DNA from: Minisyncoccota bacterium
Lineage (GTDB): Bacteria > Patescibacteriota > Minisyncoccia > UBA6257 > 2-01-FULL-56-20
Direction: 5' to 3'
Length of the DNA stretch: 64,000 bases
Assembly: GCA_035509435.1 (NCBI GenBank)
Contig: DATJLR010000002.1
Coordinates: 209,677 to 273,676, forward strand
Positions 3,367-28,405 of this stretch are shown one piece after another (the stretch's first letter is position 1; the number at the start of each line of letters is the position of its first letter). The position numbers were made by a program, and so were the translations under genes. Below the pieces are notes generated by a model. It was given only the letters and a program-made list of their open reading frames with translations. It was not told the DNA's origin and did no database searches.

Positions 3367-4131
3367 ATGAGAAACATTTGGATAATCGCAAAGAATACGC
3401 TGAAGCTCGAGATCCGGGACAAGATCCTGTACGGCATCATTATCTTCGGCCTGCTCTACGTGCTCTTCAGTTTGTTCATGGCGGACCTGGTGCTCAAGGA
3501 AATTCCGATGGTGAAGGCGTTCGGCCTTACGGGGATCTACTTCTTTAACGCCATCATCGCGCTCTTCCTCGGCACAACGTCGTTCTTCAAAGACGTGGAC
3601 CGCAGGGTGGTGTACTTCATCCTTTCAAAACCCGTATCCCGCGCGCAATTCCTGCTCGGCAAGTTCCTGGGGCTCTGTCTGGTGCTGCTCCTTACGAGCG
3701 CGATCCTCGGCGTTGCGTACGTCGGCGTCGTGCTCTACGAGCATGGCGGGTTCGACTGGATCGGGCTGGGGGCGATCGGGATGCAGTTCCTGGAGATGGC
3801 GCTTTTCCTCGCGTTCGCGATCTTTGTGTCCACATTTTCGAGCTCGGTCATTTCCATCGTGTACACTTCCGCGGTGTTCTTCCTCGGCCATATCGTGAGC
3901 CAGCTCGTCACGGACGCGAAGGCCATCAACCTCGGCGGCATCCGGCTGTGGCTCGTGGAGATCCTCTATTATATATTCCCCAACCTGGAAAAGTTCGACG
4001 CGCGGGATTTTGCGATCCACGTCGTCGCCATTCCGTGGACCGAATTCGCGCTCGCGCTCGCCTATGCCGTTGTATATGCCGTCGTGCTCCTTGGCGCGGC
4101 GATCTGGATATTCGATAAGAAGGAGCTATAG
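3367..4131 (+). CDS. ABC-2 type transporter permease
   Basis: Polytopic hydrophobic 254-aa protein immediately downstream of the ABC ATPase. Confidence 0.7.
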   Translation: MRNIWIIAKNTLKLEIRDKILYGIIIFGLLYVLFSLFMADLVLKEIPMVKAFGLTGIYFFNAIIALFLGTTSFFKDVDRRVVYFILSKPVSRAQFLLGKFLGLCLVLLLTSAILGVAYVGVVLYEHGGFDWIGLGAIGMQFLEMALFLAFAIFVSTFSSSVISIVYTSAVFFLGHIVSQLVTDAKAINLGGIRLWLVEILYYIFPNLEKFDARDFAIHVVAIPWTEFALALAYAVVYAVVLLGAAIWIFDKKEL

Positions 4132-5007: not shown

Positions 5008-5058
5008 GACAATGAAAAACACCCTCGCGCCTTTACGCGGGGGTGTCTTTCATATCAT

Positions 5059-5943
5059 TTACTCGTAGATGGTTCCCGTCGCCGTGCTGGTGGACGATGC
5101 GGGAGGGCATCCCGCAGTGCTTGTCGCGCCTGCCGGTATCATCGGGCAGGCAGCAGGGAGCGTTGCCGTGGAAGAGACGGTCGTTGTGGCCATCCCGAGT
5201 TCCGCTTCAAGCTGGATCGCGAGCGTTTCCAGTTGGTTCAATTCCGCCTGGAGCTCCGCGGTCGTGCTTGTTCCTGCCGTTATACCCGCCCCTGTCGTCA
5301 CCGTGCCGCCCGCGGATGATCGCGAGAGGTCGCGCACGATCTCTGCGTCCATCGTGCCGGTGCCGTCATAGTAGCCGTACACGTTGATCGCGTCTCCCGG
5401 CATGATGTTCGCGACCGCCATCGGCGTCCGGTCGTTTGCTTCCACCTGGGTCGCCGCGTCCACTACGACCGCATACGGATTATAGTAGGCGGGAGACGAG
5501 GTGGTGGAGGTCGGCGTCATCATGGGCGTCGCCACCGGACAGGCCACCGACGTTCCGATAGGCGAACTGTCCGTGATGAACTGTTCGCACGCCGCGCCGG
5601 ATGGCGGCACGGTCGCCATGACCTGCGTCACCGAAGTGCCCGATGCCGTCGTTCCAATGGATGCCACGGCCAGGCCGCTCATCTGCATATATTCCGCTGA
5701 GAGCGGATTTACGGCAGGCAAGGGCGCCGCGACCGTGGATGTCGCCGTCGCGGTCATCGCGGTGGACGTGCTTGACGATGCGGCCACGGTGGATGACGTG
5801 GTTGTTGTCGCGTTGATCACCGATGAGCTCGGTGTCGTGGTGCTTCCTGCGGGAAAAAGTTGCGCGTTGGCGATGCCGCCCGCCGCAACCATGATCCCGA
5901 ACGCCGCAATGATCGCGGCCATCATCATTATTTTTTTATACAT
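5059..5943 (-). CDS. Thr/Ser/Ala-rich secreted low-complexity (mucin-like) protein
   Basis: Signal peptide MYKKIMMMAAIIAAFGIMVAAGGIANA, long T/S/A tracts, and a short coiled-coil ELQAELNQLETLAIQLEAEL near the C-terminus. Confidence 0.55.
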   Translation of the reverse strand: MYKKIMMMAAIIAAFGIMVAAGGIANAQLFPAGSTTTPSSSVINATTTTSSTVAASSSTSTAMTATATSTVAAPLPAVNPLSAEYMQMSGLAVASIGTTASGTSVTQVMATVPPSGAACEQFITDSSPIGTSVACPVATPMMTPTSTTSSPAYYNPYAVVVDAATQVEANDRTPMAVANIMPGDAINVYGYYDGTGTMDAEIVRDLSRSSAGGTVTTGAGITAGTSTTAELQAELNQLETLAIQLEAELGMATTTVSSTATLPAACPMIPAGATSTAGCPPASSTSTATGTIYE

Positions 5944-6103: not shown

Positions 6104-7141
6104 GTGAGAGCAATGAAACTCTCCATCGGCATCGTCGGGCTTCCGAACGTGGGCAAGTCGACGCTTTTCAAGATGCTTACGCGGCAGGATATCACGATCG
6201 CGAACTATCCGTTCGCCACGATCGATCCGAATGTCGGCGTCGTTCCCGTCCCCGACGAGCGCCTGGAAAAATTGAACGCGCTTTCCGCCTCGCGCAAGAA
6301 AATTCCCGCAGTCGTGGAATTCTTCGACATCGCGGGCCTTGTGAAAGGCGCCAACAAGGGCGAGGGACTGGGCAACGACTTCCTTGACGACATCCATCTC
6401 ACGCAGGCGATCGTCATGGTCGTCCGCGCGTTCGAGAATCCGGATATCATCCACGTGGAGAATTCCGTTGACCCCGTCCGCGACATCGACGTGATCAACC
6501 TGGAGCTGATGCTGAAGGACCTCGCGGCCGTGGACAAGCGCCTGCTTCGCGTGGAAGCCGAGGCGCGCGCGGGCAAGAAGGAGGCGTTGCACGACAAGGA
6601 GATCTTGGAACGGTTCAAGAAGTCGCTCGAGAGCGGCGTGCTGCCGGTGAGCAATGCGGAACTGTTGCACGACATCAAGAACGATCCGCGCTTTGGCGAC
6701 CTGCGCCTGCTCACCGCAAAGCGGCAGCTGTACCTGATCAACGGCAAGCCGGAAGATGCTTCAAAAGAATTGCTTGAGAAGATCACCGCGCTCGGTGCGG
6801 AACACCTCGTTGTCGATCTTTCGTCGCCCGACGTGGAGTCAAAAGGCATCCCGGACCTCGTCAAAAAGGCGTATCACACGCTCGACCTCATCAGTTTCTT
6901 TACGACCGGCGAGGATGAGACGCGCGCGTGGACGATCGAGCGGGGGACGAAGGCGCCGCAGGCGGCGGGCGTCATCCACACCGATTTTGAGGAGAAGTTC
7001 ATCCGCATGGAAGTGGTGCCCACAGACAAGCTGCTTGAGGCAGGCGGCTGGAGTAAGGCCAAGCAAAAAGGATGGCTTCGCGTGGAAGGGAAGGAATACG
7101 TGGTAAACGACGGCGACGTTATAGAGGTCCGCCACGGGTAG
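6104..7141 (+). CDS. ychF: ribosome-binding ATPase YchF (Obg-family GTPase with TGS domain)
   Basis: IGIVGLPNVGKSTLF P-loop and a C-terminal TGS domain (KEYVVNDGDVIEVRHG). An alternative start at ATG 6113 is possible. Confidence 0.9.
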   Translation: MRAMKLSIGIVGLPNVGKSTLFKMLTRQDITIANYPFATIDPNVGVVPVPDERLEKLNALSASRKKIPAVVEFFDIAGLVKGANKGEGLGNDFLDDIHLTQAIVMVVRAFENPDIIHVENSVDPVRDIDVINLELMLKDLAAVDKRLLRVEAEARAGKKEALHDKEILERFKKSLESGVLPVSNAELLHDIKNDPRFGDLRLLTAKRQLYLINGKPEDASKELLEKITALGAEHLVVDLSSPDVESKGIPDLVKKAYHTLDLISFFTTGEDETRAWTIERGTKAPQAAGVIHTDFEEKFIRMEVVPTDKLLEAGGWSKAKQKGWLRVEGKEYVVNDGDVIEVRHG

Positions 7142-8373: not shown

Positions 8374-9648
8374 ATGAGTCCTCTCGAGAGACATAGTTCC
8401 ATGCGAACTGAGGCCGCTTTTACTCTCATCGAGCTTCTCGTCGTGATCGCGATCATCGCCATTCTCGCGGTGGTCGTCGTGCTGACACTCAACCCGGCCG
8501 AGCTCCTGCGCCAGAGCAGAGACTCCAATCGATTGTCTGACCTCAGCACCATAAGTGACGCAGTGAACCTCTATAACACGGATCAAGGGGGAAACTCTTC
8601 CTACACCTTGGGGGTCGCCTCCGATACTTATCTTTCGATCCTCGATCCCACGGCTACATCCACGACATCAGGAAATCAATGTTCGGGAATTGGCGTCGCG
8701 AGTGCTCCCGGGACCTACAGTTATCATTGCTCAGCGAGCAGCACATATCGTAATATCAACGCAACCGGCTGGATCCCGGTCAATTTTTCGACGCTTTCCG
8801 CGGGATCTCCCATATCAAGTCTTCCTATCGATCCAATCAATCAGACAAGCTCCGACCTCTATTACACCTATCAGACGAACGGAAGCCTATACAAGATCAC
8901 CGCTTTCATGGAATCGAGTAAATATGCGAAAGCTGGCATTATGGATGGAGGCACCGATCCTACCGTTGCAGAATCAGGTTCGGGGGTTGCGGCCATTCCC
9001 GACGTGGGAAGAGGCCTTATAGGTGACTGGCCGCTCAATGAAGGGGCTGGGGGTGCTGCGATTGATTGGGGCGGCGGAATGAACAACGGGACGTGGGGCG
9101 GTACACAGGCCGGAAGTTCGACGTATTATGGCTCTGGCAATAATGTGTTCCAATGGTCCGGATATTTCAATGGAACCAACGATTATGTGAGCGGTGCAGG
9201 CCTTGTTAGTTTTGGAAGTAGCGCCAATGGCACTATCCTGGCATGGATCAAGCCGTCTTCGTTGCCGGCTACCCAGACGATCCTGAGGCAAGGATTGCTT
9301 GGACAGTGTTATAGTTATGCCGCGTCCCTTCGTGGATCGACGCTCTATTCGGGCGATACTAACGGCGACTTTCTGCTTGGAGGTACGATCGCCACCGGAA
9401 CATGGCAACAGATTGCGGTCGTATTCACTCCCAGCGGGTCGCAAGGGTTTGTGAACGGAGCTGCCGTAGGCAGTAATGCGGACGGCCCTACCAATTGTAG
9501 TTCCGCCCAGAATTATTTTGCCATCGGCGTACAGGGGTATAATGCATCGTCGGCGCTGTTCTTTTCCGGATCGATGAGCGACGTACGTGTGTACGCGCGC
9601 GCCCTTTCATCGGGCGAGATCCAGCAGATCTATAATGCAGAGAAATAG
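8374..9648 (+). CDS. type IV pilin-like protein with a C-terminal LamG/ConA-like lectin domain
   Basis: Prepilin-type N-terminal methylation motif FTLIELLVVIAIIAILAVVVVLTLNP. C-terminal LamG signature (…SMSDVRVYARALSSGEIQQIYN). Paralog of the ORF at 57712-58998. Confidence 0.8.
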   Translation: MSPLERHSSMRTEAAFTLIELLVVIAIIAILAVVVVLTLNPAELLRQSRDSNRLSDLSTISDAVNLYNTDQGGNSSYTLGVASDTYLSILDPTATSTTSGNQCSGIGVASAPGTYSYHCSASSTYRNINATGWIPVNFSTLSAGSPISSLPIDPINQTSSDLYYTYQTNGSLYKITAFMESSKYAKAGIMDGGTDPTVAESGSGVAAIPDVGRGLIGDWPLNEGAGGAAIDWGGGMNNGTWGGTQAGSSTYYGSGNNVFQWSGYFNGTNDYVSGAGLVSFGSSANGTILAWIKPSSLPATQTILRQGLLGQCYSYAASLRGSTLYSGDTNGDFLLGGTIATGTWQQIAVVFTPSGSQGFVNGAAVGSNADGPTNCSSAQNYFAIGVQGYNASSALFFSGSMSDVRVYARALSSGEIQQIYNAEK

Positions 9649-20438: not shown

Positions 20439-20849
20439 ATGGAACAGGGGATCTTCATTTCCACCAATCGCGCGCGGGTGAAACCTGCCGAGGCGGCGGC
20501 GCTCTACGTGGAGCTTGGGTGGGGGACGCCGCGCGAGTATTCCGTGGCGCGCATGCGCCGCTCGCTCGCGCATTGTGACATCGTCGTCTCCGCGCGCAAC
20601 GCCGCGGGCGAGCTCGTCGGCCTCGGCCGCGCGTTGAGCGACTTTGCGATCGACACGAAGATCCTCGACCTTGTGATCGCGCCCGAATACCAGCGCCAGG
20701 GCCTCGGCCAGGCGATGATGAAGCGCATCGCCGCCGCCGCGCGCGGCACGTCCATCTACTTCGAGACCGAGCACAAGCACTTCGCCTTCGCGAAGAAGTG
20801 CGGCTACGAAAAACGGAAAGGGCTCACCGTGTTTCGTAAAAAAAGTTGA
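20439..20849 (+). CDS. GNAT family N-acetyltransferase
   Basis: Acetyl-CoA binding motif VIAPEYQRQGLGQAMM. Confidence 0.7.
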   Translation: MEQGIFISTNRARVKPAEAAALYVELGWGTPREYSVARMRRSLAHCDIVVSARNAAGELVGLGRALSDFAIDTKILDLVIAPEYQRQGLGQAMMKRIAAAARGTSIYFETEHKHFAFAKKCGYEKRKGLTVFRKKS

Positions 20850-20898
20850 ATTTATCGCGATTTTTCATTATAGTAACGATGACGCATCGGCGTCAGCC

Positions 20899-20971
20899 GC
20901 CCCCATAGCTCAGTCGGTAGAGCAGCTCCCTTTTAAGGAGAGGGTCCCAGGTTCGAATCCTGGTGGGGGCA
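20899..20971 (+). tRNA. tRNA-Lys (anticodon UUU)
   Basis: Cloverleaf folded by hand: acceptor GCCCCCA/TGGGGGC, D-arm GCTC/GAGC, anticodon loop CTTTTAA, T-arm CCAGG-TTCGAAT-CCTGG, discriminator A. CCA is not encoded. Confidence 0.85.
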
Positions 20972-21004
20972 CGCCGCGCGGAAAGGTATCCATTCATATT
21001 TTCA

Positions 21005-21103
21005 CCTCGCTGCCGGCGGCAATGAGAGTGTCCCAGGTTCGGGAATCGGCAGCGAGGCAGTAATGAGAATAAATTCTCATTACTGCCGAGCGAACCGATT
21101 CAG
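21005..21103. repeat. compound hairpin/palindrome structure inside the 147-bp tRNA-Lys-adjacent insert
   Basis: An 11-bp stem CCTCGCTGCCG/CGGCAGCGAGG (21005-21057) encloses a copy of the tRNA T-arm half GTCCCAGGTTCG. A 32-nt perfect palindrome GGCAGTAATGAGAAT-AA-ATTCTCATTACTGCC (21056-21087) is flanked by GAATCGG/CCGATTC. Confidence 0.6.
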
Positions 21104-21118
21104 CAAATTCTTATTTGC

Positions 21119-21134
21119 AATCCTGGTGGGGGCA
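21119..21134 (+). repeat. 16-bp direct repeat of the tRNA-Lys 3' end (att-like)
   Basis: AATCCTGGTGGGGGCA is identical to 20956-20971. Confidence 0.7.
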
Positions 21135-21136
21135 CA

Positions 21137-21172
21137 AAAAAGAGGGGATGGATTCCACCGCCCTCTTTTGCC
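21137..21172. terminator. bidirectional intrinsic terminator
   Basis: AAAAAAGAGGGG-ATGGATTCCACCG-CCCTCTTTTG serves the tRNA region on plus and the HicB-like gene on minus. Confidence 0.6.
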
Positions 21173-21188
21173 GATCTTGCCAGAAATG

Positions 21189-21494
21189 CTACCCGGCTTT
21201 TTGCAGGTGCTCGTTGAAGGCGTCGATGGTGAACTTCATCGTGCCCGCGAGCTCGGAACGGTCCATGGAATCATGAGATTCCTGCTGGATCACGATGAGT
21301 TGCTTTAGGTTGTTCACGGCTTCTTCTTCGTCGGCTCCGACGCCGTCGACCGCCATGCAAAGCTCGGGCGCGCTTGCCCAGATCTTGCCGTCGCCTTCCG
21401 AAAGGACAACCCTGATCGGAGCTGAAATTTTATACGGGCTGTCGTTTCCGAGATCGTTGATGTGTCTTACGCCGACAATTCGATCCATCGCCAT
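21189..21494 (-). CDS. HicB-like / UPF0150 family protein (antitoxin-like, solo)
   Basis: Pattern …RVVLSEGDGKIWASAPELCMAVDGVGADEEEAVNNLKQLI… fits the HicB N-terminal domain. No HicA partner is seen. Confidence 0.4.
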   Translation of the reverse strand: MAMDRIVGVRHINDLGNDSPYKISAPIRVVLSEGDGKIWASAPELCMAVDGVGADEEEAVNNLKQLIVIQQESHDSMDRSELAGTMKFTIDAFNEHLQKAG

Positions 21495-21646
21495 CTCCTT
21501 TTCCTACGACTGATTTAAGGATACCTTGGATTCGGCTTTGGTCAAGGATAAAAGGATAATATGAGAAGATGTAGGAGAATAAAAATACGCGCAGGGGAGA
21601 AGGATCATTGGCCGCCCTCTCCTTCTGCGCGTACGTGGATCAACCG

Positions 21647-22030
21647 CTACTGGGCCGCTGGCAGGATCTGCCACGCCTCCTGCTCGTGAGGCGATCCGAA
21701 GTTCTTGTGGCGGACCAGGGTGCCATCGGGATAAATATCATAGTCGATGGCATCTCCTTGATAGGCGCCCGAGACGACGAGCCAGTTGAGGCACGCTCCT
21801 CCATCGGGCGTGGTCCGGAACGTGATCTTGATCGTCGCCCTGGCGTCGAAATCCCGGTGGAATTCCGCGACGTTCGACATGGCGCGGGTGTTGGCCACCG
21901 TAATGGCGTGCTGTACAAGCCCGAGACGAAGCGCCTCGGTCGCTTTTTTATTTGCCTGGACACTGTTCCAGAGCGCGATACCGCTCACTGCCAAAGTGGC
22001 GGCAAAGAAAAGTGCTATCAATGTGCGCAT
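21647..22030 (-). CDS. hypothetical small secreted protein
   Basis: Signal peptide MRTLIALFFAATLAVSGIALWNSVQA. A terminator hairpin follows on the minus strand at 21585-21630. Confidence 0.5.
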   Translation of the reverse strand: MRTLIALFFAATLAVSGIALWNSVQANKKATEALRLGLVQHAITVANTRAMSNVAEFHRDFDARATIKITFRTTPDGGACLNWLVVSGAYQGDAIDYDIYPDGTLVRHKNFGSPHEQEAWQILPAAQ

Positions 22031-22115
22031 GCATACCTCGCGCGGAGATTATAATATATGGATTTATATGAGTCAACGTTATAGGCATTTTTATTATCTT
22101 TGCTATACTTACCCC

Positions 22116-22706
22116 ATGCCGAACCGCGACTTAGAATTTCTTTTTGAGATAGGGACCCTGCGCAACGTTGAGCGCGGGTGGAAGCAGCACCTTGCCGTAA
22201 AGTGTGCGACCGATCCGGAGCACAGTTTTCGCGTTGCGTTCATCGCGCTCCTGCTTGCGCGCAAGGAAGGCGTCAAAAACGAGGAGAAGATCATCAAGAT
22301 GGCGCTCGTGCATGACCTTGCGGAGACGCGCGTGTCGGATCACAGCTATATGCAAAAGGTGTACGTGACGTCCGACGAGGAGCGCGCCGCGCAGGACCTT
22401 TTTGCAGGCACCGCGCTCGATGACCTACGGAGCGAAATTTTGAACGAGTATGAGGCGCGCCAGACGATCGAATCAAAGATCGTAAAAGACGCCGATAACC
22501 TCGACGTGGACCTTGAGCTCAAAGAGCTGGAGGAGCACGGCTCGCAGCTGCCGCGCAAGTGGGCCGCAACGCGGCGCATCGTCCGCGACGAGAAGCTTTA
22601 CACACAGGCGGCGAAGGACCTTTGGGACGAGCTACAGGCGGCCGATCCATCCAGCTGGCACCTTACAAGCAACAAGTGGTTCAAGATTCCCGGAGCGGGG
22701 AAGTAG
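22116..22706 (+). CDS. HD-domain phosphohydrolase (YfbR-like 5'-deoxynucleotidase family)
   Basis: H…HD motif (EHSFRVAFIALLLA…MALVHDLAETRVSD). Start refined to ATG 22116 behind a TATACT -10. Confidence 0.7.
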   Translation: MPNRDLEFLFEIGTLRNVERGWKQHLAVKCATDPEHSFRVAFIALLLARKEGVKNEEKIIKMALVHDLAETRVSDHSYMQKVYVTSDEERAAQDLFAGTALDDLRSEILNEYEARQTIESKIVKDADNLDVDLELKELEEHGSQLPRKWAATRRIVRDEKLYTQAAKDLWDELQAADPSSWHLTSNKWFKIPGAGK

Positions 22707-22749
22707 CGCCACTCGCCGCCATTTGCCTCCGTGGTAAACTAAAAGAGCA

Positions 22750-23223
22750 ATGGACCAACCGACCTGGCCGCCAGAATCATCGTCCGGACCGCAACCTGCG
22801 GTGCCGGTGCCGCAGCCGAATGCCACTGCTCCCATGCAGCCACAGGCAGGCGCGCCGGGCATGGGCGTCGCCGTGTCGTTCATCTGTCCGCGCTGCCATT
22901 TTCCGGTAAAGCCGGAATATTATTTTTGTCCCAATTGCGGCGTGAAGCTGACCGAACCGCCGATCGGCGTCGGCCTCTTGGACCAGCTCTTGCTCTATGC
23001 GTTCAGTATCATCCTGCCGTGGATCGCGTATCTCGCGATCACGAAATGGCAGGGGATCAAATATCTCCGCTCGGCGGATGCGCGCGCGAAGCAGATCGGA
23101 CTCATCGCGCTCATCTTGCTCGTCGCGTCGAGCGTCGTGGCGTTCTGGCTGACGTACCAATGGATCGAAGGAACGGTCCAATCATCGGTGAACGCCGTCA
23201 ACAGTAATTTAGGAGGGTTTTGA
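22750..23223 (+). CDS. zinc-ribbon membrane protein
   Basis: P/Q-rich N-terminus, CPRC…CPNC zinc ribbon, two TM helices. Confidence 0.5.
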   Translation: MDQPTWPPESSSGPQPAVPVPQPNATAPMQPQAGAPGMGVAVSFICPRCHFPVKPEYYFCPNCGVKLTEPPIGVGLLDQLLLYAFSIILPWIAYLAITKWQGIKYLRSADARAKQIGLIALILLVASSVVAFWLTYQWIEGTVQSSVNAVNSNLGGF

Positions 23224-28320: not shown

Positions 28321-28334
28321 TAGAGTTGATTTTG

Positions 28335-28405
28335 TGGACCCGGGGAGAATCGAACTCCCGCCTCAGCAATGCGAATGCCGCGTTATACCACTTAACTACG
28401 GGCCC
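28335..28405 (-). tRNA. tRNA-Ala (anticodon CGC)
   Basis: Reverse complement folds as acceptor GGGCCCG/CGGGTCC with the G3:U70 Ala identity pair, D-arm GTTA/TAAC, anticodon loop TTCGCAT, T-arm GGGAG-TTCGATT-CTCCC. Confidence 0.85.

Follow-up and report, generated by a model that had tools for sequence, protein, structure and literature searches.

A tRNA-Lys gene followed by the probable debris of a tRNA-within-tRNA locus and a copy of a dispersed hairpin element in a Minisyncoccota bacterium

The window analyzed here, a 64,000-nt stretch of contig DATJLR010000002.1 from a Minisyncoccota bacterium (GCA_035509435.1), contains a tRNA-Lys gene whose 3′ end recurs a short distance downstream, beyond a set of nested palindromes, and the question raised by this locus is how the second copy came to be there. 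In the initial annotation, the two copies were read as attL and attR sites left by an element that had integrated into the tRNA gene. Comparison with related loci points in another direction: the window probably holds a working tRNA-Lys gene followed by about 165 nt of debris from a locus in which one tRNA lay within another, the debris being split by a 77-nt element and followed by the original terminator. Coordinates are window positions throughout, and labels such as L001 and L009 denote comparison loci from genomes, metagenome or viral contigs. An independent assembly, Logan SRR8879132 (L001), is 100% identical to the window locus over 361 nt, which excludes an assembly artefact.

The gene encodes a 73-nt tRNA-Lys(UUU) without an encoded CCA (20899–20971, plus strand). 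It was matched by the Rfam tRNA model at 71.9 bits (E = 1.8e-15; gathering score 29), its loop CUUUUAA gives the Lys(UUU) identity, and a G27·A43 mismatch forms the top of the anticodon stem. The repeat of its 3′ end, first described as 16 nt long, is real and extends over 17 nt (AATCCTGGTGGGGGCAC). Copy 1 (20956–20972, plus strand) comprises tRNA positions 58–73 plus one base, and all 17 positions (17/17) are identical at 21119–21135; no third copy of the 17-mer was found in the 64 kb, where shuffled sequences gave 0.31 matches with three mismatches allowed. The partial tRNA copy within an 11-bp hairpin and the palindrome embedded in a hyphenated palindrome, both noted before, are likewise present and had been correctly placed: 21021–21041 is identical to 20935–20955 at 19 of 21 positions, a perfect 15+15 palindrome lies at 21056–21087 (0 matches in shuffles), and the GAATCGG...CCGATTC arms as well as the 11-bp pairing of CCTCGCTGCCG with CGGCAGCGAGG can be read directly in the sequence. 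Folding bore out the suspicion of strong structure, as the 147 nt between the repeats reach −64.5 kcal/mol and are far more stable than shuffled versions (z = −6.2).

What had been overlooked is that the two tRNA-derived pieces downstream of the gene (21021–21041 and 21119–21135) are contiguous in the tRNA, where they correspond to positions 37–57 and then 58–74. Part A of this orphan tRNA-Lys 3′ half (21020–21041, plus strand) covers positions 36–57 and differs from the tRNA by T36>C, G39>T and G45>T; relatives carry an uninterrupted TAAGGAGATGGTCCCAGGTTCGAATCCTGGTGGGGGCA at this site. Part B (21119–21135, plus strand; positions 58–73 plus one base), which is the second copy of the repeat and matches 20956–20972 at 17/17 positions, resumes part A exactly where the tRNA sequence would go on. 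Once the 77 nt between them are removed, the tRNA-derived downstream sequence amounts to 38 nt (positions 36–74). The 17-nt "direct repeat" is the distal piece of a split 38-nt orphan 3′ half.

Between the tRNA gene and part A lies a trailer arm (20972–21019, plus strand), predicted to be the 3′ strand of an ancestral leader:trailer hairpin, with the motif CTCGCTG at 21006–21012 and the arm CCGGCGG at 21013–21019. It is collinear with the trailers of L031, L023, L038 and L026, which share the conserved end ATTTTCA-C/A-YTCGCTG-CCGGCGG. A half-model in the form of a hidden Markov model (HMM), trained only on free-standing metagenome copies of the element described below, matched 20997–21021 (E = 0.013) and also the trailers of L017, L020, L021, L023, L026 and L028. 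As judged by these alignments, the roughly 49 nt following the window's tRNA are shown to be a conserved trailer, homologous to those of the relatives. The corresponding 5′-half HMM matched the leaders of nested loci, but nothing upstream of the window's tRNA.

The 77 nt separating parts A and B (21042–21118) form a structured palindromic element that is read on the minus strand, as defined by covariance model, fold and boundary comparison. Its P1 hairpin (21103–21118) is followed by helix A (GAATCGG at 21095–21101 with CCGATTC at 21043–21049), an inner motif (TTCGCTCG at 21087–21094 opposite CTCGCTG at 21050–21056) and helix B (21073–21086 with 21057–21070), so that the whole reads GCAAATAAGAATTTGC (P1)-T-GAATCGG-TTCGCTCG-GCAGTAATGAGAAT-TT-ATTCTCATTACTGC-CTCGCTG-CCGATTC-C. 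With its boundaries set by comparison with the intact tRNA, L031 and L023, the element splits the orphan half exactly between G57 and A58 of the T-loop, without target duplication. It folds at −40.9 kcal/mol (z = −9.2). The 11-bp hairpin seen across the locus arises because the trailer and the reversed element bear the same motif in opposite orientations.

The suggestion that part of the window's intervening DNA is a miniature non-autonomous element with copies elsewhere holds up. The motif pattern GGTTCGCTC-N24-44-TCGCTGCC was scanned in metagenome and viral contigs, with mostly chance matches; a filter for complementary arms gave 8 clear elements among the metagenome matches listed, and about 17 were genuine by covariance score among 120 metagenome matches listed. 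None was genuine among 80 viral pattern loci scored, of 120 viral matches listed. Covariance model R1, trained on 9 copies, recovered at least 19 copies at 26.6–77.7 bits (18 of those at 45.6 bits or more) in 18 loci with unrelated contexts, and scores over the pattern-hit loci were bimodal, with genuine copies at 45 bits or above (nine outside the training set) and chance matches at 25 bits or below. The window itself was matched by model R2, built from 7 metagenome copies with the window excluded, at 21040–21101 on the minus strand (68.7 bits, E = 2.8e-17), and the same model also recognised a second L017 copy at 51 bits and an L033 copy at 25 bits.

In the model-fitted alignment of the 19 copies, some of them picked for complementarity, 85.6% of helix cells were paired and 19 of 21 pairs showed double compensatory changes; 0 of 500 shuffles reached the observed values, and slid controls paired about 40% of cells. 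The central loop covaries too, as the position beside helix B is G-C in the free-standing mini-elements and A-U in most nested loci, and C5-G4′ is replaced by U-A in L021, L028 and L042. Because these central positions covary, the conserved core would thus be an irregular two-fold-symmetric duplex with 5′-CGCU-3′ on both strands and C·U mismatches. Neither the element nor the leader or trailer matched a family in Rfam 15, searched at permissive thresholds, and the exact palindrome was absent from the JGI metagenome contigs.

A probable source of the trailer and the orphan half emerged from related tRNA-Lys loci. The 42 nt from the anticodon loop to the 3′ end of the tRNA were scanned as a pattern, with two degenerate positions allowed, against one genome per species; exact pattern matches in 28 species representatives gave 28 loci of the candidate phyla radiation (CPR), 27 of them distinct (L040 is the same contig region as L014). 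In 10 species (L017, L020-L023, L026, L028, L038, L041 and L042), a complete inner tRNA-Lys sits between anticodon-loop positions 35 and 36 of an outer tRNA-Lys. The order is promoter, tRNA-Lys positions 1–35 (ending in GCTCCCTTT), P1 hairpin, a leader of about 45–60 nt, the complete tRNA-Lys, a trailer of about 43–53 nt, and tRNA-Lys positions 36–73 (TAAGGAG...GGGGGCA). Such loci are found, for example, at 1304–1567 of L023 and at 5027–5300 of L038, both on the minus strand. The complementarity of leader and trailer extends as far as the ends of the inner tRNA, and the two form a helix of about 50 bp with that tRNA at its tip. Although their sequences diverge strongly among species, complementarity is kept within each: cognate leader:trailer duplexes average −52.7 kcal/mol compared to −23.5 ± 8.8 kcal/mol for non-cognate ones, and the cognate partner was best in 10/10 rows. 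For L023 and L038, the minimum free energy fold of the whole nested unit (z = −7) is predicted to be a double cloverleaf, in which P1 and a long helix would project from the outer anticodon loop, with the inner tRNA at the end of the helix.

The nested cassette has the same architecture as the window's 77-mer, namely P1, a 7-bp arm, TTCGCTCR, a long helix, YTCGCTG and a 7-bp arm, with the tRNA of the cassette in the place of the 2-nt loop of the 77-mer. In addition, P1 of L026 (GCGAATAAGAATTCGC) is nearly the same as that of the 77-mer, and the half-models from free-standing copies match the leaders and trailers of nested loci. On this likeness, the 77-mer and the scaffold of the nested cassette are best placed in one family. 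In L038, the nested form is flanked by the window's GNAT gene upstream and by its zinc-ribbon membrane protein gene downstream, so that in this relative it occupies the window's own locus; L023 has the downstream zinc-ribbon gene in common with the window. The two outcomes set against each other in the initial annotation, a trailer conserved among relatives and an insert with copies elsewhere, each apply to a different part of the insert: trailer and orphan half are common to the relatives as a conserved tRNA trailer, and the 77-mer is the part with copies elsewhere.

Other relatives display only the trailer side. This holds for L031, L039 (upstream part lost at a contig end), L043 and the window, and in L031 the 3′ half is complete. 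L031 and L037 represent one and the same locus and differ by the presence or absence of one unit of trailer plus 3′ half, and L017 has two such units in tandem, from which it follows that recombination between the repeated halves can add or remove units. Orphan halves have also received other small hairpin insertions, of the loop AGCCTGTC type in L017 (361–400) and L028, and an insertion of about 20 nt (CCTGCCTNCCGGNAGGNAGG) in L042 (both halves) and L039. A different arrangement is seen at 2236–2400 of L036, where two tRNA-Lys genes (UUU then CUU) lie in tandem about 100 nt apart, the second being a true gene and not an orphan half.

Starting from the established anatomy of the window, the homology of its trailer, the family membership of the 77-mer and the nested form at a syntenic locus, we propose a history in three steps. 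An ancestor would have carried the nested locus, as suggested by the 10 species, among them L038 with its synteny on either side. The two identical 35-nt 5′ halves would then have recombined and the outer 5′ half and the leader would have been lost, leaving promoter, tRNA, trailer, orphan 3′ half and terminator; L031 shows exactly such an intermediate. Finally, a 77-nt element would have entered the T-loop of the dead orphan half in reversed orientation between G57 and A58, a step supported by the exact boundaries and the model score. An insertion at that point would do no harm, and the debris in this genome is most likely functionless.

Several observations weigh against this history. The deletion step is one that we infer, and the closest relatives by GNAT identity, L009 and L011 (90–92%), lack the trailer, which means that several gains or losses must be assumed. 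The outer halves of the nested loci are conserved beyond the leaders (mean pairwise identity 0.93 vs 0.63), and are therefore not simple neutral debris everywhere; between L023 and L038, for instance, outer halves have an identity of 1.00 and leaders of 0.56. As the outer halves also carry the species-specific D-loop variants of the inner tRNA, their conservation means gene conversion or selection. The element lacks a consistent target-site duplication and an associated enzyme, and the helix statistics draw on some copies that were chosen for complementarity and on an alignment fitted by the model. Lastly, at a tRNA-Tyr gene (L093) and a tRNA-Phe gene (L094), an intact tRNA is followed by a short insert and then by 16–23 nt that repeat its own 3′ end, and a mini-element lies within or next to this arrangement. 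Since no nested form is known for those tRNAs, the idea that the insertion process itself duplicates the tRNA 3′ end stays alive, for the family though not for the 49-nt trailer and the 38-nt half of the window.

These two loci also speak for the alternative nearest to the initial annotation, in which a small element integrated site-specifically at the tRNA-Lys 3′ end by crossover in the T-loop (core AATCC...GCAC), the 17-nt repeats being attL and attR and the 147 nt being the element or a deletion remnant; in a variant, a long staggered cut would have duplicated positions 58–74. The stretch from the T-loop to the tRNA end is a classic tyrosine integrase sublocation, and the repeat spans the T-loop to just past the tRNA end. 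Other isotypes look alike, as L093 combines a 16-nt repeat with a near-identical element and L094 has a 23-nt repeat, and the stretch between the tRNA and the conserved zinc-ribbon gene varies among relatives. Seven matches to the 17-mer were found in viral contigs, consisting of three tRNA-Met genes, two lone fragments and two without a tRNA call. The lone fragments, at 8779–8800 of L003 and 4471–4492 of L007, both large phage contigs, are attP-like tRNA 3′ fragments (GTTCAAATCCTGGTGGGGGCACC) without a tRNA gene, which would suit integration; none of the seven matches, however, has flanks related to the window insert.

Further evidence makes this alternative unlikely for the window. No integrase, excisionase or cargo was found in the neighbourhood: there is no open reading frame (ORF) between the repeats, the neighbouring ORFs are without integrase, transposase or recombinase domains, and in relatives' loci neither an integrase nor an island lies between the tRNA-Lys copies in the stretches read around the tRNA. 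The tRNA-derived sequence is 38 nt (36–74), not 17 nt. In 10 species, which also keep the 5′ orphan half, the 49-nt piece corresponds to a conserved trailer paired with a leader, an arrangement that attP × attB recombination does not yield, and L031 has the same trailer with an uninterrupted 3′ half. An att pair would be expected to duplicate only the 3′ portion of the tRNA, and 10 related loci duplicate the 5′ 35 nt as well. A 5′ orphan half and complementary arms are not expected from integrase recombination, and an integrase origin is therefore disfavoured. From the initial proposal of a scar, a miniature element or a recombinase binding site, an old insertion in a tRNA gene and a miniature non-autonomous element are retained, and the scar of an integrase-borne island is abandoned.

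Most free-standing copies of the family are intergenic, and 6/19 lie within 300 nt of a tRNA gene, about 10 times the chance expectation by a rough estimate that assumes some 45 tRNA genes per Mb. At 6753–7020 of L093, the order is tRNA-Tyr, a hairpin, CTCGTATGG-CCGGCAGG, a stretch ending in CAGGGTTCG, the mini-element, ATCCTGCCCGGCGCAC and AAAAAAG. This close parallel to the window includes a trailer-like motif ahead of the mini-element, which has the arms, T-loop position, junction (TTCG|GGAATCGG) and minus orientation of the window's copy. In ATCCTGCCCGGCGCAC, 16 nt of the tRNA-Tyr end are repeated, whereas the stretch on the left of the mini-element resembles Lys more than Tyr. At 911–1270 of L094, the last 23 nt of tRNA-Phe (CGATTCACCGCCCAGGCACAAAA) recur about 150 nt behind the gene, a mini-element comes 40 nt after this repeat, and an inverted T-arm copy lies between tRNA-Phe and the repeat. 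In L111, the sequence runs from tRNA-Ile over 18 nt to the element and then to a 3′ fragment of another tRNA, and in L049 a truncated 3′ half of tRNA-Lys (TAATGAGATGGTC) comes after the element. A significant match to a tRNA-Lys 3′ half was seen in the flank of no copy other than that of L049, and the free-standing copies were not accepted as decayed tRNA-Lys insertions.

At 1781–1930 of L033 (minus strand), the element lies directly 5′ of a tRNA-Ala(CGC) gene, with its 3′ arm equal to tRNA positions 1–7 and GGGCTC duplicated upstream; the window's own tRNA-Ala(CGC) gene (28334–28405, minus strand) is without an element. The notion that the helix A arms are copies of the target site, as an inverted or direct target duplication, fits L033 and, loosely, the window, but not the other copies, and was rejected. 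Target duplications are absent at the insertions of the window and L093, whereas TA may be duplicated in L017 and in the seven copies with TA|TA...TA|TA ends. In L152, two mini-elements 1.3 kb apart (5601–5660 and 6905–6968) bracket two ORFs, one of 107 aa and one of 172 aa, the latter without an NCBIfam match. Genes beside copies revealed no obvious transposase or nuclease, with ORFs inspected at L152 and L093 and one product scanned (NCBIfam only).

A more far-reaching view, which we consider doubtful although conceivable, is that the cassette is a new self-compensating CPR element or intron that targets tRNA genes and brings its own tRNA-Lys on the tip of a two-fold-symmetric hairpin. Its targets might then comprise the tRNA-Lys anticodon loop, the T-loop after TTCG and tRNA ends, and a dedicated dimeric nuclease or recombinase might recognise GG-UUCGCUCG/CUCGCUG-CC. 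The outer tRNA could conceivably still arise by a novel bacterial protein-dependent splicing, which would explain its identity to the inner gene, and the window might represent a decayed locus with a fresh insertion of the mobile core. If true, such a cassette could sit inside an essential single-copy gene by carrying its own tRNA-Lys.

Another possibility to be weighed against a decayed nested locus is that trailer, orphan half and element are a functional, co-transcribed structured RNA kept by selection, possibly as a processing platform for RNase III, P or Z, a stabiliser, a decoy for tRNA-binding proteins or a small RNA. The extreme folding (z = −6.2 to −9.2) and the compensatory changes in both helices, even inside the loop (L021, L028 and L042), agree with such a role, as do the leader:trailer pairing kept across species, the outer halves that follow the species-specific D-loop variants of the inner tRNA, and the position of the sole terminator after the debris. 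Yet in the window the leader partner is gone, the orphan half is split and has three substitutions, and the element is oriented opposite to the nested cassettes. The close relatives L009, L011 and L014 have none of trailer, orphan half or element, and no Rfam family was found. A strand test based on fold energy and G·U counts gave no RNA-strand signal, with the opposite strand folding equally well or better in 18/19 copies. Taken together, we find a functional RNA quite unlikely.

The downstream pieces might instead be read as a second, intron-containing or split tRNA-Lys gene, with the 77-mer as a T-loop intron and the trailer as part of the precursor. Archaeal tRNAs have protein-spliced introns at T-loop positions such as 58/59, which offers a precedent for the site, and the nested unit of the relatives folds as a double cloverleaf. 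tRNA introns at non-canonical positions are described in general terms (PMC4090602), and in Patescibacteria, tRNA-Asn and tRNA-Asp carry group I introns at position 35/36 (Nakagawa et al. 2026, PMC13011429). In the window, however, there is no 5′ half; ARAGORN and Rfam find no second tRNA, and no acceptor-complementary sequence lies upstream of part A. G39>T disrupts the anticodon stem, no bulge-helix-bulge could be drawn at the junctions by inspection, and the element is reversed relative to the cassette. The Intron_gpI covariance model had no match in the window region (E ≤ 10) or in five nested loci (E ≤ 1). A split or intron-bearing tRNA is thereby largely refuted for the window, and we hold it to be very improbable.

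The tRNA-Lys gene itself is prone to misannotation. ARAGORN labels it "tRNA-Stop (tta)", as it does the identical gene of L009-L013 and L017, an annotation trap; the stem register is slid by one base around the G27·A43 mismatch, at the cost of an internal C·A mismatch and of two bases left between D arm and anticodon arm. The same anticodon arm is called Lys(ttt) by ARAGORN in 12 other related loci. Among the long ORFs of the window, TAA is the most frequent stop (17 TAA, 13 TAG, 12 TGA), and the genes that it terminates include dnaK, dnaJ, rnhB and smc. The label of a UAA-suppressor tRNA was rejected as an artefact because of the register shift and the ordinary use of TAA as a stop.

Upstream of the gene, a candidate promoter (TTGAAT-17 nt-TATAGT, 20846–20874, plus strand) was identified by consensus match only, and relatives' tRNA-Lys genes have TTGAAA...TATAAT-like boxes at comparable distance. 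Behind part B, a predicted bidirectional terminator hairpin at 21136–21169 (A-run, GAGGGG...CCCTC, T-run) would serve both the tRNA transcript and a convergent 101-aa ORF; its folding energy is −19.1 kcal/mol for the plus strand and −22.7 kcal/mol for the minus strand, with a terminator-like site predicted on minus. In L011 (90% GNAT identity), which was fetched like L009 via GNAT orthologues, the tRNA is directly followed by CACAAACAAAAAG and a hairpin, a context matching that of the window's second copy, and homologous CACAAA(C)AAAAAG plus hairpin stands directly after the tRNA in L011 and after a decayed copy in L009. From this homology to L011, the terminator after the second repeat copy is, on sequence grounds, the ancestral terminator of the tRNA gene. 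At 3535–3940 of L009 (92% GNAT identity), tRNA-Lys is separated by about 370 bp with a 74-aa CxxC ORF from a decayed tRNA-end-like sequence (CATCCAGTCGGGCGCAC), after which come an A-run and the ancestral terminator. Transcription of the window's tRNA probably starts at the upstream promoter and reads across the debris as far as the terminator at 21136–21169, and RNase P together with RNase Z-type cleavage behind A73 would free the tRNA; because CCA is not encoded, it would be added enzymatically.

The tRNA-Lys gene is preceded in the window by dnaK, one gene, dnaJ, a coiled-coil protein gene and the GNAT gene, and followed by ORFs of 101 and 127 aa on the minus strand, an HD hydrolase gene, the zinc-ribbon membrane protein gene, rnhB, rpmF, nusB, rnc and smc. 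The 101-aa ORF, the 127-aa ORF and the HD hydrolase gene between the terminator and the zinc-ribbon gene (21173–22750) form a small variable island; these three genes are absent from L038 and L023, and different genes are found in L009, L011 and L014. The 101-aa ORF (21189–21494, minus strand) had been called a HicB-like gene, a label that we could not substantiate, as its product had no Pfam match (E ≤ 1) and no NCBIfam or PDB sequence match of note. Its single-sequence AlphaFold2 model (pLDDT 46) was unusable for fold comparison.

Three likely annotation errors are corrected by this analysis, namely the "suppressor tRNA", the "integration scar" and the "HicB" gene. The window itself holds a decayed and probably functionless remnant with one copy of a new family, and its interest lies mainly in the relatives. 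A nested tRNA-Lys is kept in at least 10 Paceibacteria species, with co-evolving leader and trailer and with outer halves that change in concert with the inner gene; if selection keeps the outer halves, the outer tRNA may be made via a novel splicing route. The hairpin family has a conserved two-fold-symmetric inner motif and is enriched beside the tRNA genes of ultra-small bacteria. Genomes of CPR bacteria are tiny, with tRNA genes that are usually single-copy, and an element residing within an essential tRNA gene, or a novel mode of processing for such a gene, would bear on tRNA production in this group, on the origin of tRNA introns and split tRNAs, and on tRNA mis-annotation in metagenome-assembled genomes. 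Neither the nested tRNA-Lys nor the 60–80-nt hairpin family was found in Rfam 15 or in the searchable literature, in which nothing pertinent on nested tRNAs or palindromic elements in CPR turned up beyond the group I intron report (PMC13011429).

Compared to known systems, the locus resembles the att fragments of tyrosine integrases in that an intact tRNA is followed nearby by an exact copy of its 3′ end from the T-loop onwards, with a variable region adjoining. It differs in that the window is without integrase or cargo and the fragment is a 38-nt half reaching into the anticodon loop, and the 5′ orphan half and complementary arms of the relatives point to insertion of a whole tRNA-bearing cassette. 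With archaeal intron-containing and split tRNAs (Nanoarchaeum-type), the relatives have in common halves that are split in the anticodon loop and clamped by the complementary ends of the insert, and the insertion in the window's T-loop recalls archaeal non-canonical introns. In contrast to these, the host is bacterial, the insert carries a complete second tRNA and lies at position 35/36, and the window's T-loop insert is reversed and in a dead half; instead of a bulge-helix-bulge, inspection and predicted folds place the junctions at a multi-helix junction of anticodon stem, P1 and helix A. The group I introns of Patescibacteria (PMC13011429) occur in the same phylum and at the same anticodon-loop position 35/36, whereas the nested cassette has about 110 nt outside the inner tRNA, forms a simple hairpin and concerns the isotype Lys; that report mentions neither Lys nor nested genes.

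The element is also reminiscent of repetitive extragenic palindromes (REP/REPIN), miniature inverted-repeat transposable elements (MITEs) and attC sites, being a 60–80-nt hairpin with variable yet complementary arms and having dispersed intergenic copies in many genomes. Its basal helix, irregular central region, second helix and variable tip are particularly similar to attC. Against attC stand arms of the form NNNNNGG / CCNNNNN without RYYYAAC/GTTRRRY, and copies that are solitary except for the pair in L152 (IntI was not searched for); against REP stands the absence of GTAG from the element. The element may further be set apart by its low copy number (one in 64 kb), the lack of a consistent target duplication and the absence of a linked RAYT or transposase in the two loci inspected, and inverted arms as in MITEs are present but variable in sequence. 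Unlike in all three classes, the conserved bases of the element are central (GG-TTCGCTCG...CTCGCTG-CC) and not terminal, and the element is strongly associated with tRNA genes.

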